Origin: Dehalococcoidia bacterium
Lineage (GTDB): Bacteria > Chloroflexota > Dehalococcoidia > Dehalococcoidales > UBA1222
NCBI GenBank assembly: GCA_009776515.1
Contig: WRNP01000005.1
Location: 1-33,068 of the forward strand
Length of the DNA stretch: 33,068 bases
Direction: 5' to 3'
The notes beneath the pieces were generated by a model. That model was not told where the DNA came from, ran no database searches, and was given only the letters and a program-made list of their open reading frames with translations. Every line of letters starts with the position of its first letter. Position 1 is the stretch's first letter. The position numbers were made by a program, and so were the translations under genes. Shown piece by piece: positions 1-27,141 of the stretch.

Positions 1-480
1 CCGCCGACCGAGCCGACGACAACTACGCCTACCATCACGACGACCACCACTACAACTCCGACTAGAACGGATGACCCAAGGGATACGATACCGCCATCAT
101 CTCTTACCACGCCCACTACAACCCCACCAGCGCCTCCATCAACAGCAGGTGGGGACTGGGCCCTCCTTAACCTCATTTTGGCCATCCTGGGAGCTCTCCT
201 GGCCATAGGAGCCATCATCCGTGCTTTCTTCTGGCATGGTCGGGACGAAGACCGCTATGGTACCGAAGAAAAGAAGACCCGTCTCATTTGGCTGGTCATA
301 GCCGTTGTCCTGGCCATAATAGGTTTCATCGTCTTCTTCTTCACCGAAGATGTGAGTCTCCCAATACGCTTCGTGGATATCTGGACCATTGCCAACGCTG
401 TCATCTTCATCGCCGGTATCATCAGTGTCATACTGGCCTTCAAGCGAGAGGAGAAGGATTTTCAAGTGAACTCTCGTTAG
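1..480 (+). CDS. 3' part of a surface protein: Thr/Pro-rich stalk plus conserved 3-TM C-terminal module (5' end outside window)
   Basis: Frame 1 is open from base 1 (PPTEPTTTTPTITTTTTTTPTRTDD...AGGDWALLNLILAILG...) to TAG at 478-480. Three hydrophobic segments; 83/101 aa identical to the C-terminus of the 22319-26368 protein. Confidence 0.9.
   Translation, partial: PPTEPTTTTPTITTTTTTTPTRTDDPRDTIPPSSLTTPTTTPPAPPSTAGGDWALLNLILAILGALLAIGAIIRAFFWHGRDEDRYGTEEKKTRLIWLVIAVVLAIIGFIVFFFTEDVSLPIRFVDIWTIANAVIFIAGIISVILAFKREEKDFQVNSR
157..459 (+). repeat. Copy 1 of duplicated C-terminal membrane module (copy 2 at 26030-26332)
   Basis: Ungapped 303-bp alignment with 26030-26332; many differences fall at third codon positions. 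Confidence 0.95.
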
Positions 481-21099: not shown

Positions 21100-22131
21100 A
21101 TGCCTGCATATACCTCAATAAAGAAAATCACAGATGGGTCTGAAAGAACCCGCATTGTAGAAAAACTTCTGGCGCTTCGCACTCAACTTGACCAGCAGAT
21201 TCCGGCTAAAACTGCTACCGATACACTTTTGCTTGCCACATGGAATATCCGCGAATTCGGTGATAATCGGCGCACGGAAAGTCTTCACTACTTGGCGGAA
21301 ATCGTTAGCCGGTTCGATTTGATTGCCGTGCAAGAAGTCGCATCCAATTTGGGTGGAATACAAAAGCTTGTTTCTCTGCTAGGCCACAATTGGGATTACA
21401 TTGTAACGGATAGCACGGAAGGTACGGCGGGTGGTGGTGAGCGCATGGCGTTCATCTACGACAGGTGTAAAGTTTTTTTCCGCAAAATGGCTGGGGAGTT
21501 TGTCTTGCCGAAAACAAAGCTTCTTGGAGAAGGGAAGCTTCAATTTGCGCGCACGCCATTCACCGTTGCTTTCCAAGCCGGTTGGTTTCGGTTTGTCTTG
21601 GTTACGGTTCATATACTATATGGCACGAGTAAAAAAGAAGACCCGCAACGTGTTGAAGAAATTTCTGCTGTTGCTAAATTCATTAAGGATCGCGCCAAGA
21701 AGGAAGATGAAAATTATATCCTGCTCGGTGATTTTAATATCTTCAACACCGGCGATGCTACTATGAAGGCGCTCGAAAAGCAAGGGTTTTATATTCCGGA
21801 TGCCATTCGCGAGCATCCATCAGATTTGGGCCAGACAATGCATTATGATCAGATAGCGTTTAAGCTGAAGATTGAGAATAATATGACTGTCTTCGCCGAG
21901 GGAAAGCAGCGGGCTGGGGCCTTTGATTTCACGGAGACGATTTATCCCCTGCGGGACCTAGATGTGTATCGTGGATATTTTGAGGAGAAAGTACTGGCCG
22001 GAAAAACAGAGAAACAGATCGAAAAATACTACCTGTCCACCTGGCGCACCTTTGAAATGTCTGACCACCTGCCGCTTTGGATTGAACTTAAAGTAGATTT
22101 TAGCAATCAGTATCTCGCAAAGATAAAATAA
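21100..22131 (+). CDS. Endonuclease/exonuclease/phosphatase (DNase I-like) family protein
   Basis: ATWNIREF, FDLIAVQEV, ERMAFIYD, FARTPF, LLGDFNI, YDQI, SDHLPLW; no signal peptide. Confidence 0.92.
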   Translation: MPAYTSIKKITDGSERTRIVEKLLALRTQLDQQIPAKTATDTLLLATWNIREFGDNRRTESLHYLAEIVSRFDLIAVQEVASNLGGIQKLVSLLGHNWDYIVTDSTEGTAGGGERMAFIYDRCKVFFRKMAGEFVLPKTKLLGEGKLQFARTPFTVAFQAGWFRFVLVTVHILYGTSKKEDPQRVEEISAVAKFIKDRAKKEDENYILLGDFNIFNTGDATMKALEKQGFYIPDAIREHPSDLGQTMHYDQIAFKLKIENNMTVFAEGKQRAGAFDFTETIYPLRDLDVYRGYFEEKVLAGKTEKQIEKYYLSTWRTFEMSDHLPLWIELKVDFSNQYLAKIK

Positions 22132-22318: not shown

Positions 22319-25300
22319 ATGGGCATCATAAAAAATAAACCCAACCTAAAACAGCTCTTGTTGGTACTGCTGATCGCCATATTGGTCGTAGCAATAGTGC
22401 TGGCTGGCACACCGCTACTCACCCAACCTAAAGTAAGCGCTGCCCCGGGTGATACCTATGCGGTACCTATGGTCTCAGCCGGAGGCAGTCATACGGTTGC
22501 CCTGCATAATGACGGCACCGTCTGGGCTTGGGGTTCTAACGAATACGGACAGTTGGGTAACAACTCCACCGCAGGCAGCCTGACCCCCGCACGGGTAGTT
22601 GGCCCGGGAGGGGTTGGTTTTCTCGCCGATATTATTGCCGTCTCAGCTGGAGATGCTCACACTGTGGCTCTCAAAGATGATGGCACCGTCTGGGCCTGGG
22701 GGGCTAATAATCACGGCCAATTGGGTAATAACTCCACCGCCGACAGTCTGACACCAGTGCAGGTAGTAGACCCCGACGACATCACCGGTTTTCTTGCCGA
22801 CATTGCTGCCATATCTGCCGGAGGCCTGTACACCGTAGCCCTTAAAGCTGATGGTACGGTATGGACCTGGGGAGCTAACAGCGATGGCCAATTGGGTAAC
22901 GACTCCTCTGCGGATAGCTGGATACCTGATCAGGTACGAGAGCCATGGGGAGGCGTCAATTACCTTACCGAAATCATCGCCATCTCGGCCGGATACGCTC
23001 ACACAATAGTCCTCAAAGAAGACGGTACTGTATGGGCCTGGGGACAGAATTATTATGGTCAGTTGGGTGATGGAACTACTACCAGCAGCAGTACTCCGGT
23101 ACAGGTAATCAACCCCATGGATGTCACCGGTTTCCTCACCGACATCGTTGCCGTATCGGCTGGATATTATCACACGGTAGCCCTAAAAGCTGACGGCACC
23201 GTATGGGCTTGGGGATATAATTTCTACGGTCAACTGGGCGATAGTACTGATGCTCATCGCTATTCACCAATACAGGTACCCGGTCTGCTCGAAGTGGCGG
23301 CCATCTCGGCCGGATATGCTCACACCGTAGCCCTTAAAGCTGATGGTACGGTATGGGCCTGGGGATTGAATAGCGCTGGCCAACTGGGTAACGATTCCTC
23401 TACTGATAGTTGGATACCTGATCAGGTACGAGAGCCTTGGGGAGGCGTCAATTACCTTACCGATATTATCGCCATCTCGGCCGGAGGTTATCATGCAATT
23501 GCCTTGAAGAGTGATGGTGCCGGCGAAGGCACCCTTTGGTCATGGGGAGATAATGATTTTGGTCAGCTTGGCGACGGTACTGCCGTAAACCGCCTTGCAC
23601 CTGTACAGGTTGTTTATTATAACTTTATCGCTGTCTCCGCCGGATATTCTCATACAATGGCCCTGAAATATGATGGCACGGTATGGGCTTGGGGATGGAA
23701 CAATTTAGGACAATTGGGCAATGGTTCTACTGCAAACAGTTTCAAGCCTGTACAGGTGCGCGGTCTGGGAGGCGCTGGTTTTCTGACTGATATAGTCACT
23801 GTCGCGGCTGGAAACTATTACACGGTGGCTCTGAAAGAAGACGGCACGGTATGGGCCTGGGGATATAACAGCCAAGGCCAACTGGGCGACGGCACTAATG
23901 GCGCAGGCGCAAACCGTAGCGTGCCAGTACGGGTTATCGACCCAACCGATGACACCGGTTTTTTGACCGGTATCATGGCTGTTGCGGCTGGTGTTAATAA
24001 CACAGTAGCCCTAAAGGAAGCTGGCACGGTATGGACATGGGGAGGAGGCCTGTTGGGAAATGGCACCACTGCGAGCAGTAGCGTGCCAGTACGGGTTATC
24101 GACCCAACCGATGACACCGGTTTTCTGACCGGTATCACTGCTGTTGCGACTGGGCAGGATCACACAGTAGCCCTAAAAGAAGATGGCACGGTATGGACAT
24201 GGGGATACAACTTCTATGGGCAGATTGGCGATGGCACTAATGGTGTAGGCACAAACCGCAACGTGCCCGTACAGGTTATCGACCCAACCGATGGCACCGG
24301 TTTTCTGACTGATATAGTCGCCGTCGCGGCTGGAAGCTATTACACGGTGGCTCTAAAAGAAGATGGCACGGTGTGTGCTTGGGGTTATAACAACTACGAC
24401 CAGTTGGGCGATGGTAACGGCGGCCTTGGCGTATATAGTAGCGTGCCAGTACAAGTTATCGATCCAACCGATGTCACCGGTTTTCTGAGCGGCATCATTG
24501 CTGTTGCGGCTGGACAGGATCACACAGTAGCCCTAAAAGAAGATGGCACAGTATGGGCTTGGGGACTGAACATTAACGGCCAACTGGGTGATGACACTGA
24601 GACAAATCGACTTGCGCCAGTTCAGGTACGCGGACCGGGCGGCGGTGGCTTTTTGACTGACATAGTGGCTATTGCGGCTGGAGTTAATCACACAATGGCC
24701 CTGAAGATTGATGGCACGGTATGGGGTTGGGGGCATAACCAATTTGGGCAGGCGACGGGTGATACAGGATATACCCACGTCCTTACGCCCACGCGGGTTT
24801 TCTCCCCTGCTCCCTTCACAGTATTGTTGGACATCACTCCTCCCATCGGTATCATCAGCTTCGTACTTAACGATTATGGCTCTTTCATCACCGCAAACAC
24901 TTTTGGGGTATTTCGCAAGAACACCACTTTTATCACCATAACAGCCCAAGACGATCTCTCTGGTATCAAATCCATTGCCTATCTTCTATCCGATAATGTC
25001 TACCTAGATGCAGCGGCTATGAGTAGCGTCATCTGGACATCTTATCCCAAAGACGGGTTCAGCATATCGGCCAACTACAGGGGTTTCGCCTATGCCCGCA
25101 TTGCCGACAAGGCAGATAACATAACCATTATCCGCTCTGATGGTTTGGTGGTATACACAGATAGCACTCCTGCTATCACATCGCTCAGTTATGTCTATGC
25201 TTCTGCTTCTGATCAAGATCTCGCGGTGACAATGAGCGGCAATACTATAGACAAAATCATGAACGGCGCCGTCACCCTCGTATTTGGCGTCGACTACACG

Positions 25301-26368
25301 GTAATGGGCGATGTCATTACCTTCAAAGCCGCTTATCTTGACAGTTTAAGCATTGACGATTACACCATTACCGTCTATTACAACCCCATGGGTGTAACTT
25401 ATGTAGATGCCCCAGGCAACGAAGCTCCCGATACCACCACCGTTAACCTGATGATATACCAGCCGTACGATGTTATCTATACCTATAGCGGCACTATTCC
25501 CCTGGGTGCCCCGGCTGTGCCGTCGCTAGAGAGCTTTGCTCCCAACACAATGGTTAGCGTAGCACCACCACCGACCCTATCTGGTTATACTTTCAGCGGG
25601 TGGAGTACTGCCTCAGCGGGGGTCAGTATCAGTGGTGGTAGTTTCTCCATGCCAACAAGTGATGTGGTTTTCACTGGCACGTGGATGCCAAACACTCCAA
25701 TCACCACGGCCACATCGACGACATCGACGCCCATCACTCCTCCCAATACCGTCATTCCCACCACTCCCGTTTCTTCTATTCCCACCACGGTGATCGTGAG
25801 TCCCACCCCTTCCGGTACTACTACCACACCGACTCCGTCAACCACGCCTACCACTGCCCCAACGAGTTCAACCACCTCGGCTATCTCAGCCACCCCACTG
25901 ATACAAGATCCCACTGAGACCGGCACTCTCCCAACAACGACCGCTATGGGTGGTAGCACCTCACCCACCACCACGACCGTAGCTCCCTCTACCACCCCGA
26001 ATACGAAGACCGGTGATGGCAACGATTACTGGGCCCTCCTTAACCTTATCCTGGCCATCTTGGGGGCTCTCCTGGCCGTAGGGGCTATTATCCGAGCTTT
26101 CTTCTGGCACGGTAAAAACGAAGACCGCTACGGTATAGAAGAAAAGAAGACCCGACTCATCTGGATCGCCATATCTGTCGTCCTGGCCATAATAGGTTTT
26201 GTGGTCTTCTTCTTAACCGAAGATATGAGTCTCCCAATGCGCTTCGTGGACATCTGGACCATCGTCAATGCCGTCATCCTCATAATCGGTATCATCAGTG
26301 TGATGCTGGTCTTCAAGCATGAGGAAAATGACGCAATGAAACCAGCCACTAACGGAAGAGGGGAATAA
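22319..26368 (+). CDS. Large surface protein: signal peptide, 14 RCC1/BLIP-II blades, Ig/X2-like and InlB B-repeat-like stalk, Thr/Pro linker, 3-TM C-terminal module
   Basis: GAGGAG SD 9 nt before ATG 22319; hydrophobic leader ending ...VSA-A; repeats AGxxHTVALKxDGTVWAWGxNxxGQLG; GVDYTV..DVITFKAAYLDSL (X2-like); PTLSGYTFSGWST..FSMPTSDVVFTGTW (B-repeat-like). Confidence 0.92.
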   Translation: MGIIKNKPNLKQLLLVLLIAILVVAIVLAGTPLLTQPKVSAAPGDTYAVPMVSAGGSHTVALHNDGTVWAWGSNEYGQLGNNSTAGSLTPARVVGPGGVGFLADIIAVSAGDAHTVALKDDGTVWAWGANNHGQLGNNSTADSLTPVQVVDPDDITGFLADIAAISAGGLYTVALKADGTVWTWGANSDGQLGNDSSADSWIPDQVREPWGGVNYLTEIIAISAGYAHTIVLKEDGTVWAWGQNYYGQLGDGTTTSSSTPVQVINPMDVTGFLTDIVAVSAGYYHTVALKADGTVWAWGYNFYGQLGDSTDAHRYSPIQVPGLLEVAAISAGYAHTVALKADGTVWAWGLNSAGQLGNDSSTDSWIPDQVREPWGGVNYLTDIIAISAGGYHAIALKSDGAGEGTLWSWGDNDFGQLGDGTAVNRLAPVQVVYYNFIAVSAGYSHTMALKYDGTVWAWGWNNLGQLGNGSTANSFKPVQVRGLGGAGFLTDIVTVAAGNYYTVALKEDGTVWAWGYNSQGQLGDGTNGAGANRSVPVRVIDPTDDTGFLTGIMAVAAGVNNTVALKEAGTVWTWGGGLLGNGTTASSSVPVRVIDPTDDTGFLTGITAVATGQDHTVALKEDGTVWTWGYNFYGQIGDGTNGVGTNRNVPVQVIDPTDGTGFLTDIVAVAAGSYYTVALKEDGTVCAWGYNNYDQLGDGNGGLGVYSSVPVQVIDPTDVTGFLSGIIAVAAGQDHTVALKEDGTVWAWGLNINGQLGDDTETNRLAPVQVRGPGGGGFLTDIVAIAAGVNHTMALKIDGTVWGWGHNQFGQATGDTGYTHVLTPTRVFSPAPFTVLLDITPPIGIISFVLNDYGSFITANTFGVFRKNTTFITITAQDDLSGIKSIAYLLSDNVYLDAAAMSSVIWTSYPKDGFSISANYRGFAYARIADKADNITIIRSDGLVVYTDSTPAITSLSYVYASASDQDLAVTMSGNTIDKIMNGAVTLVFGVDYTVMGDVITFKAAYLDSLSIDDYTITVYYNPMGVTYVDAPGNEAPDTTTVNLMIYQPYDVIYTYSGTIPLGAPAVPSLESFAPNTMVSVAPPPTLSGYTFSGWSTASAGVSISGGSFSMPTSDVVFTGTWMPNTPITTATSTTSTPITPPNTVIPTTPVSSIPTTVIVSPTPSGTTTTPTPSTTPTTAPTSSTTSAISATPLIQDPTETGTLPTTTAMGGSTSPTTTTVAPSTTPNTKTGDGNDYWALLNLILAILGALLAVGAIIRAFFWHGKNEDRYGIEEKKTRLIWIAISVVLAIIGFVVFFLTEDMSLPMRFVDIWTIVNAVILIIGIISVMLVFKHEENDAMKPATNGRGE
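22478..24800 (+). repeat. 14 tandem RCC1-like repeats (two 7-bladed propellers)
   Basis: Counted 14 units of about 50-60 aa. Near-identical DNA at 22831-22993 vs 23323-23485, and a 59/60-nt match between 23916-23975 and 24078-24137. Confidence 0.9.
26030..26332 (+). repeat. Copy 2 of duplicated C-terminal membrane module (copy 1 at 157-459)
   Basis: WALLNLILAILGALLAVGAIIRAFFWHG...TEDMSLPMRFVDIWT...FKHEEND; 83/101 aa identical to copy 1. Confidence 0.95.
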
Positions 26369-26550: not shown

Positions 26551-27141
26551 ATGTTGAAGAGCGTGTTGTCACTTCTCTTGGCGCAGATATTGCTCATTGC
26601 GCCCTTCGGGTGCTCCATGAGCGTCACGCCTAGCGCCACAATTGAGGTCAAAGATTTCTATATTATTTATGAAAGAGATCCATCTGACAGTATCGCGTTC
26701 ATTGAATGGGACCAGTTTGGCAATGCCATCTCTATAACTAGTAAACCCGAGAATCAATTCAAGGTTTTGCTGGATACAAAGAATAATATTCTAGGTAGAG
26801 TATTTGATTTGCAAGGTCAACAATACGCCTACATCAGTATCCATATGCCCCCTGAAGATTTGCAGGCTATCTACGACGCTGTTATCAAGTATGATATCAA
26901 ATCACTCAGTAGCCCCGATGTGCTGAGCCCCGATGAGTGGGTATTATATGGGAATGGGTATTATCGAATCACGTTTTTCCTTGAGGGCGAGGTATATTCA
27001 GTTACTTATCGTGAGCGCGTAATTTACTCAATGCAGCCAGCATATCAGAATTTGCGTTCATTCCATACTGTGTTGAATTATTACTACAAAAATACTGATG
27101 AATATAAGAGTTTTCCGCCGGTGATGACCACGGCAGCGTAA
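26551..27141 (+). CDS. Putative lipoprotein of unknown function
   Basis: MLKSVLSLLLAQILLIAPFG-C signal with lipobox-like Cys; GAGGA upstream; AT-rich, Tyr-rich. Confidence 0.75.
   Translation: MLKSVLSLLLAQILLIAPFGCSMSVTPSATIEVKDFYIIYERDPSDSIAFIEWDQFGNAISITSKPENQFKVLLDTKNNILGRVFDLQGQQYAYISIHMPPEDLQAIYDAVIKYDIKSLSSPDVLSPDEWVLYGNGYYRITFFLEGEVYSVTYRERVIYSMQPAYQNLRSFHTVLNYYYKNTDEYKSFPPVMTTAA

Follow-up and report, generated by a model that had tools for sequence, protein, structure and literature searches.

Two surface proteins of a Dehalococcoidia bacterium end in the FILTED module, probably a self-sufficient three-pass membrane anchor

How large adhesins are retained at the surface of murein-less bacteria and archaea is poorly understood, and the locus described here raises this question for two stalked proteins of a Dehalococcoidia bacterium. 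The window, by which we mean the whole stretch of DNA analysed, comprises 33,068 nucleotides (C5:1-33068; GenBank contig WRNP01000005.1) of a genome of 1.34 Mb that is assembled in 99 contigs and is 91.5% complete. Two of its genes, A and B, end in the same module of 101 residues, which an earlier note had taken for a candidate undescribed anchoring or sorting system recognised by a partner. We found that the module belongs to a family already named, FILTED. We consider it rather probable that it is a portable, self-sufficient anchor of about 100 residues, which crosses the cytoplasmic membrane three times and retains in it large stalked surface proteins that are exported via Sec.

The two copies, at 157-459 and 26030-26332, align without gaps with 83 of 101 residues identical, as the earlier note had reported, and with 254 of 303 bases identical; BLASTP over the unmasked part gave 67/85 identities (E 2e-49) and the mean column identity of the DNA alignment is 86%. 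Its remark that many of the differences are synonymous holds as well, since the 49 base differences divide into 28.0 synonymous and 21.0 non-synonymous ones (Nei-Gojobori). The ratio of non-synonymous to synonymous divergence (dN/dS), which it had proposed to compute, is 0.17, with dN 0.097 and dS 0.56; therefore the likeness is kept by purifying selection and not by very recent copying, and the two copies are of sufficient age for divergence. Before the Trp codon, only 56 of 156 ungapped bases agree: the stalks do not align and similarity begins abruptly at the Trp, again as had been observed. The two modules and their predicted transmembrane segments (TM1 to TM3) and loops are the following:

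157..459, + strand: FILTED module copy A, matched by NCBIfam model NF052597
157-231, + strand: TM1 of copy A
232-288, + strand: inner loop of copy A
289-345, + strand: TM2 of copy A
346-381, + strand: outer TED loop of copy A
382-441, + strand: TM3 of copy A
460..480, + strand: copy A, end of the charged cytoplasmic tail and stop codon
26030..26332, + strand: FILTED module copy B, matched by NF052597
26030-26104, + strand: TM1 of copy B
26105-26161, + strand: inner loop of copy B
26162-26218, + strand: TM2 of copy B
26219-26254, + strand: outer TED loop of copy B
26255-26314, + strand: TM3 of copy B
26333..26368, + strand: remaining cytoplasmic tail of copy B and stop codon

The module is not undescribed, as had been supposed. 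NCBIfam NF052597.1, 'FILTED domain-containing surface protein', a domain model of 110 positions with a cut-off of 40 bits, matches both window modules over model positions 1-108, with 96.5 bits for frame A, 93.9 bits for the whole gene B and 100.9 bits for module B alone (97.4 and 100.6 bits for copies A and B in the genome search). It also matches 48 of 48 diverse modules. To judge from their sequences, both window modules are members of NF052597, at over twice the cut-off and without structural difference from it. Where the second helix ends, copy A has the letters FFFTED and copy B FFLTED. The exact string F-I-L-T-E-D is found in locus L008, the relative with the highest score, and the family name presumably refers to it. 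We found no paper on the FILTED domain by its name, by its motif strings or by the accession NF052597. As far as literature searches show, the family is named and curated, yet apparently uncharacterised in print, and its name alone gives no function. The earlier note had allowed that the module might prove to match a characterised family; the family exists and bears a name, and its characterisation did not turn up in these searches. With the two window proteins, a known family whose function is untested gains new members.

Other collections added little to this identification. Pfam gave nothing above the gathering threshold on the window modules (best PLDc_N, 22.8 versus 23.3 bits); over the 48 diverse modules no Pfam family was matched by more than 13, the families were generic membrane ones, and the rows displayed with their cut-offs, which are those of the first member of the 48, all lay below threshold. 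When the window modules were scanned with NCBIfam, every CTERM model stayed below its cut-off. A profile search of the PDB returned chance matches alone (E >= 0.07), with no structural or sequence relative among them, and the ESM Atlas gave only unnamed Bacillota clusters (0.90-0.91). One further candidate was discarded: the pilin-like conjugal transfer protein of a Mycoplasma integrative and conjugative element (NF045849) was aligned with TM1-loop-TM2 of copy B (window 26033-26209) at 31.8 bits for a cut-off of 40. This model matches 5 of the 48 modules at E <= 1e-5, probably as an effect of helix-loop-helix composition.

Where does the module stand in its host proteins? A profile of 7 modules searched against cluster representatives gave a family of 4036 representatives at E <= 1e-3 and of 2276 at E <= 1e-10. 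The module is followed by 21 residues at most in 71 of 72 proteins and by 30 at most in 202 of 210; in gene B, 12 residues follow the match. The 60 residues before it, pooled over 84 proteins, are rich in Pro (18%), Thr (14%), Ala (10%) and Ser (9%), and a signal-like hydrophobic segment was seen in 44 of 59 complete N-termini, with a crude first-ATG call. In gene B, the N-terminus is clearly signal-like and is followed by 14 RCC1 repeats, a CBM_X2 domain, the stalk and the C-terminal module. The module was supposed to be a swappable cassette, and indeed a word-indexed search for longer proteins yielded 72 relatives with RCC1, Flg_new/InlB-B, MBG, VWA, SpaA, DUF11, LRR (LRR_5), MucBP and other ectodomains before it, with more than 10 differing Pfam families in all. 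As side observations, the archaeal modules (L021, L024, L025, L027) have a longer first loop, rich in Gln, Lys and Asn, and some archaeal proteins continue for up to about 80 additional residues past the module.

The count of paralogues, which the earlier note had also asked for, gives 7 matches to NF052597 in the source genome, on differing ectodomains. Besides the two of the window, these are a 394-residue protein, a 289-residue frame with a Flg_new-like part that is truncated by a contig end, an 1181-residue frame, a truncated 594-residue Gly-rich repeat protein, and a frameshifted remnant on contig C4 (C4:11785-11564, minus strand), which retains the end of TM2, the TED loop, TM3 and the tail and lies directly downstream of ilvC. 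This remnant is the sole internal fragment that a contig end does not explain. We considered whether 'mini' genes with TM2-TM3 alone exist; in the relatives G001 and G011 every such fragment is located at the end of a contig, and the short proteins of the databases appear to be gene-call fragments. FILTED genes often stand at contig ends, as seen for 4 of 4 checked fragments (G001, G011, G013; loci L012-L015) and for gene A. The stalk or the module probably breaks short-read assemblies, and therefore FILTED copy numbers are floors.

Conservation was computed on 270 distinct modules. In helix 1, W3 is present in 100%, A4 in 98%, L5 in 93%, N7 in 269 of 269 and L8 in 99% of the sequences. At the end of TM2 and in the TED motif, F62 reaches 99%, T65 is found in 270 of 270, E66 in 89% (replaced by Q in 27) and D67 in 77% (replaced by N in 55); further on, M72 is conserved at 92%, D76 in 268 of 270, W78 at 96% and T79 at 97%. 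All these positions map to the membrane's outer side, where the three helices end. The inner helix halves, the first loop and the tail are conserved in composition only, and the first loop, variable in length, is rich in K/R and D/E. The WALLNL and TED...D.WT motifs stay near-invariant in distant relatives, archaeal ones included, so that the conserved loop motifs noticed in the two copies also characterise distant homologues.

The arrangement first put forward, with three helices, WALLN and the TED loop outside and the charged loop inside, fits both the charges and the helix prediction. There are 5 K+R in the first loop and 3-4 in the tail; the TED loop has 1 K+R versus 3 D+E. AlphaFold2 gave helices at 3-31, 38-66 and 73-103 with an alignment of 48 rows, and at 2-27, 40-69 and 73-101 with 83 rows. 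An N-out, C-in topology of three helices fits this positive-inside pattern and these helices.

The anchor that we favour would work as follows. The ectodomain would be exported via Sec, with the stalk spanning the surface layer, and TM1, which would pass from the outer to the inner side, would stop the transfer, so that the highly charged first loop and the tail would remain cytoplasmic. TM2 and TM3 would then insert as a hairpin, with the short acidic TED...D loop outward. Trp3, Asn7, Thr65, Glu/Gln66, Asp/Asn67, Asp76, Trp78 and Thr79 would form a hydrogen-bonded cap locking the helices at the outer leaflet. Together with the inner charged 'knot', this cap would make a pull-resistant anchor needing the universal insertion machinery only. 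Replacement of E66 by Q and of D67 by N is frequent while Asn7, Thr65 and Asp76 are invariant, which suggests hydrogen bonding rather than charge; this pattern of residues suggests a network closing the helix bundle on the side of the outer leaflet, a feature not seen in the weak models.

YidC/Oxa1-type insertases insert hairpin proteins with short acidic translocated loops, such as M13 procoat and Pf3 coat. The TM2-acidic loop-TM3 part of FILTED has the same layout, and if a universal insertase were its only 'partner', it would be clear why the module is portable across bacteria and archaea. There is, however, no sequence relation between FILTED and these proteins, and the comparison accounts for the acidity of the loop but not for the invariant Trp, Asn and Thr. 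Self-sufficiency would explain how one module functions in very different envelopes, from the probably murein-free cell of Dehalococcoidia to the walled Clostridia and Coriobacteriia, the Saccharibacteria and an archaeal clade.

Several observations weigh against such an anchor. The invariant residues form unbroken runs (W-A-L-x-N-L; F-x-L-T-E-D-M; D-x-W-T), all at the outer interface; these exceed what one packing face per helix would require and resemble a recognition or active site. The TM1 motif and the basic residues that follow it look like a classical sorting signal, made of a motif, a helix and a basic tail. Both AlphaFold2 models pack the helices with low confidence (pLDDT, the predicted local distance difference test, 66.0 and 65.8; pTM, the predicted template modelling score, 0.35 and 0.36), and because of this low confidence the proposed cap is not visible in any model. 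The absence of a partner, described below, rests on gene neighbourhoods and four candidate families, in a source genome of 99 contigs and 91.5% completeness. Lastly, a motif preceding the module in other hosts might be a wall-related processing site in those with a wall. Of 227 unique upstream segments, 135 have this motif, [TVI]-P-L-[ASFY]-[GAS] (hereafter PL motif), at a distance of 6-12 residues from the Trp; 200 shuffles gave a mean of 43.5 and a maximum of 59. It was seen in loci L016-L095 and proteins P0001-P0210. Sorted by record title, 33 of 47 'Bacillota or other' rows and 3 of 6 Coriobacteriia rows have the motif, and none of the 30 others does (0/22 archaeal, 0/6 Dehalococcoidia, 0/2 Saccharibacteria).

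These points bear on a different explanation, namely that FILTED is a sorting or processing signal: a membrane enzyme would recognise the outer-face motifs and cleave or transfer the ectodomain, the three-helix part being left behind or serving as a docking element. The enzyme could be a widespread one, for example a rhomboid, a sortase acting on xPL[AS]G in walled hosts, or an unknown one. WALLNL, the helix and the basic cluster mimic the layout of LPXTG, PEP-CTERM and GlyGly-CTERM signals, and the invariant runs at the outer interface as well as the position of the PL motif agree with such a function. In addition, 4 of 5 other FILTED genomes contain a sortase. We nevertheless hold this explanation to be unlikely. 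Sortase (PF04203) and exosortase/archaeosortase (PF09721) each have 0 matches in the source genome, 91.5% complete; the archaeon with 21 FILTED matches is the one of the five others in which sortase was not found, and exosortase is found in 0 of these 5. The source genome has one rhomboid and one CPBP protease, which could be put forward for the role. A rhomboid match was obtained in all 14 control genomes and a CPBP match in 11 of them, which makes their presence uninformative; the source-genome rhomboid was also rejected as a rhombosortase, with 25.5 bits versus the TIGR03902 cut-off of 84. Moreover, the PL motif is in neither window stalk (1-156 and 25682-26029), and a tag to be discarded would not require two more conserved helices.

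The comparison with known signals leads in the same direction. Like LPXTG signals, FILTED is a C-terminal element behind the Pro/Thr-rich stalk of surface adhesins, in which a motif is followed by a hydrophobic helix and basic residues; in contrast, it has three helices and the LPXTG signal one, and the source genome, without a sortase, mraY or murG match, probably has no wall. The strict string LP.TG is not in the last 180 residues of either window copy, neither of which has the make-up of a sortase substrate. With PEP-CTERM, PGF-CTERM and GlyGly-CTERM, the module shares its nature of a portable C-terminal tag on unrelated secreted proteins of one genome and the position of a motif at the outer end of a helix, but those systems consist of one helix with a co-occurring dedicated enzyme. 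The letters PEP and PGF are in neither window copy, so that these are no exosortase substrates by their letters, and 0 of 6 FILTED genomes have an exosortase-family match. GG stands two residues before the Trp in copy A; it is not conserved, because copy B lacks it, and the copies do not have the make-up of rhombosortase substrates.

The recognising partner postulated by the earlier note did not come to light in gene neighbourhoods either. We clustered 869 open reading frames from 80 loci, 90 of these being FILTED genes, and observed no conserved neighbour across the 80 loci. The best non-FILTED cluster covers 10 of 80, all labelled Bacillota. It is a regulator-like protein of about 400-430 residues (with one fragment of 159 residues) within 10 kb of FILTED genes, at loci L034, L040, L054, L062, L066, L069, L077, L083, L086 and L093, whose titles read Bacillota or 'Bacteroides'. 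Its look of a transcriptional regulator is read from one of its sequences, and it might control these adhesin genes locally. The next cluster, at 8 of 80 loci, consists of generic ABC ATPases. FILTED proteins and acyl-CoA synthetases are all that the surroundings of the 7 source-genome loci have in common.

That no external enzyme was found would suit another possibility, that of a self-processing anchor, in which the Asn of TM1, aided by Thr and Asp of TM2/TM3, would cleave the chain by Asn cyclisation and release the ectodomain. In SPATE autotransporters (serine protease autotransporters of Enterobacteriaceae), the passenger is reportedly released inside the barrel by Asn cyclisation. Asn7 is invariant and followed by Leu8 at 99%, with the invariant Asp76 and Thr65 at the same depth. 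This remains pure analogy, however, and the module resembles no self-cleaving protein in sequence or structure; the release of an adhesin would defeat the purpose of its long stalk, and the models are too weak for the geometry to be judged. We regard self-processing as very improbable.

The same residues could also make up a binding or assembly site, which would either coordinate a cation or ligand at the stalk base or join paralogues into oligomers, clustering the adhesins. Asn, Thr, Glu, Asp, Asp and Thr, here at one membrane depth, are typical oxygen ligands. In the most divergent paralogue of the source genome (contig C80), all three acids have changed together (NTNNNWT), several paralogues are found per genome (7, 21, 11 and 5 matches), and a low monomer pTM is expected if partners are missing. 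On the other hand, replacements of E66 by Q (27/270) and of D67 by N (55/270) are mostly independent of each other, which a strict cation site would tolerate poorly; Saccharibacteria and Hominibacterium have 1-2 copies only, and the PDB holds no relative by structure or sequence. A prediction of a homo-dimer (two modules, 48-row alignment, run without controls) gave a score of 0.00 and a mark of 0.42 and weighs neither way. A binding or assembly site seems to us less probable than a sorting signal and more probable than self-processing.

A broader idea may be set beside the anchor: FILTED could be a third type of C-terminal device for surface display, distinct from both a passive helix and a tag of the sortase type, a view that we find doubtful. 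The outer-leaflet cluster (Trp3/Asn7, Thr65-Glu-Asp and Asp76-x-Trp-Thr) would then be recognised, ligand-binding or self-processing, with no dedicated enzyme, and the same doubt covers this description. If it were true, independence from an enzyme would explain the crossing from bacteria to the archaeal genus Bathycorpusculum, and also how FILTED became the main anchor in wall-less Dehalococcoidia.

What kind of envelope has the source organism? Dehalococcoides have a murein-free envelope. In the source genome, 91.5% complete, mraY and murG gave no match, which fits this background; the envelope is probably without murein, and hence offers no wall to which proteins could be linked. FILTED appears to be the main solution for surface retention in this Dehalococcoidia lineage (4-7 matches) and in gut Bathyarchaeia (2-21 matches). 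The family is large in metagenomes and is without a Pfam model, a solved structure or a paper found, and the invariant residues of the outer face are clear targets for mutagenesis. The curation of the module under the name FILTED in NCBIfam was already known. New here are the size of the family and its strict C-terminal position, the mapping of its invariant residues to the outer face, its spread in an archaeal clade, the finding of no known sorting enzymes or murein genes in the source genome, and the PL motif upstream in walled hosts.

FILTED is rare and patchy, in Dehalococcoidia, Clostridia, Coriobacteriia, Saccharibacteria and one archaeal clade, Bathycorpusculum. Genomes over the cut-off were 7 of 41 among the relatives of the source genome (itself included), 2 of 301 in the source phylum, 5 of 399 in Clostridia and 6 of 201 in Bathyarchaeia, the class of the archaeal carrier. 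Within the same Dehalococcoidia family, genera g1, g5 and g6 have 1-7 matches per genome (4-7 in all except one 52%-complete genome), and genera g2, g3 and g4 have none over the cut-off. Elsewhere we counted 21 matches in Bathycorpusculum, on more than 15 contigs, 11 in a Coriobacteriales metagenome-assembled genome (MAG), 5 in a Gemmiger MAG, 2 in Hominibacterium and 1 in a Saccharibacteria MAG. A pattern scan with one genome per species found 291 relatives, and 80 loci were kept. Their record titles, which are unverified, name Dehalococcoidia, Coriobacteriia, Oscillospiraceae, Christensenellaceae, Anaerovoracaceae, Saccharibacteria and 'Bacteroides', and many read Candidatus Bathycorpusculum or Nitrososphaerota archaeon; two cultured bacteria are among the carriers, Hominibacterium faecale SF3 and Anaerovorax odorimutans. 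Plasmids and phages gave no match by tblastn.

PMC10684969 treats Bathycorpusculum under the Bathyarchaeales of arthropod guts. The archaeal FILTED genes score 97-114 bits and are located among housekeeping genes. In a quick maximum-likelihood tree of 93 modules and 115 columns, unrooted and with many unresolved forks, 24 archaeal rows fall on one side of a branch with a Shimodaira-Hasegawa-like approximate likelihood ratio (SH-aLRT) of 96. A wider supported set of 40 rows contains them along with 12 Dehalococcoidia rows (6 from the source genome), two from Anaerovoracaceae, one from Coriobacteriia and one from Christensenellaceae. The simplest reading is that the module entered the archaeal lineage once and then multiplied within it. 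From the distribution we infer a transfer from bacteria to archaea, the unrooted tree being silent on direction. Mis-binning of single contigs is possible, but it does not agree with 21 matches on many contigs or with a separate archaeal clade. Seven loci (L053, L054, L056, L064, L074, L078 and L087, from six MAG records) are titled 'uncultured Bacteroides sp.'; their modules group inside the Bacillota set of the tree and the titles may be wrong.

The two window genes have the following further features:

1..480, + strand: open reading frame without 5' end, surface-protein gene A, truncated by the contig start
1..156, + strand: Thr/Pro-rich stalk of gene A (T 22, P 13 of 52 residues)
22319..26368, + strand: complete FILTED surface-protein gene B, 1349 residues, whose ATG start agrees with database protein P0001
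22319..22441, + strand: signal-peptide-like N-terminus of gene B (basic start, hydrophobic core, VSA|A), read by eye and not by a predictor
22457..24796, + strand: RCC1-repeat region of gene B, 14 repeats (PF25390, 748.8 bits; PF00415, 561.4 bits in 14 stretches)
25187..25384, + strand: CBM_X2-like domain of gene B (PF03442, 47.3 bits, cut-off 28.9; residues 964-1029 of the 1356-residue frame)
25529..25672, + strand: Listeria-Bacteroides (Flg_new / InlB B-type) repeat of gene B (PF09479, 20.1 bits, under the cut-off of 27)
25682..26029, + strand: Thr/Pro/Ser-rich stalk of gene B (T 44, P 20, S 15 of 124 residues)

For gene A, the last 159 residues alone are on the contig, and its ectodomain lies outside the available sequence because the contig start truncates the gene. 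Gene B encodes P0001 (1349 residues) with 100% identity; in its first 50 residues, which were inspected, VSAAPGD begins at residue 39. Downstream of gene B, at 26551-27141 (+ strand), a protein of 196 residues, without a family match in Pfam or NCBIfam, has an N-terminus that looks lipoprotein-like by eye, no predictor being used. Upstream of gene B, a gene of the endonuclease/exonuclease/phosphatase family lies at 21100-22131 (+ strand), and its product weakly resembles the membrane nuclease MnuA (52.8 bits versus a cut-off of 185).

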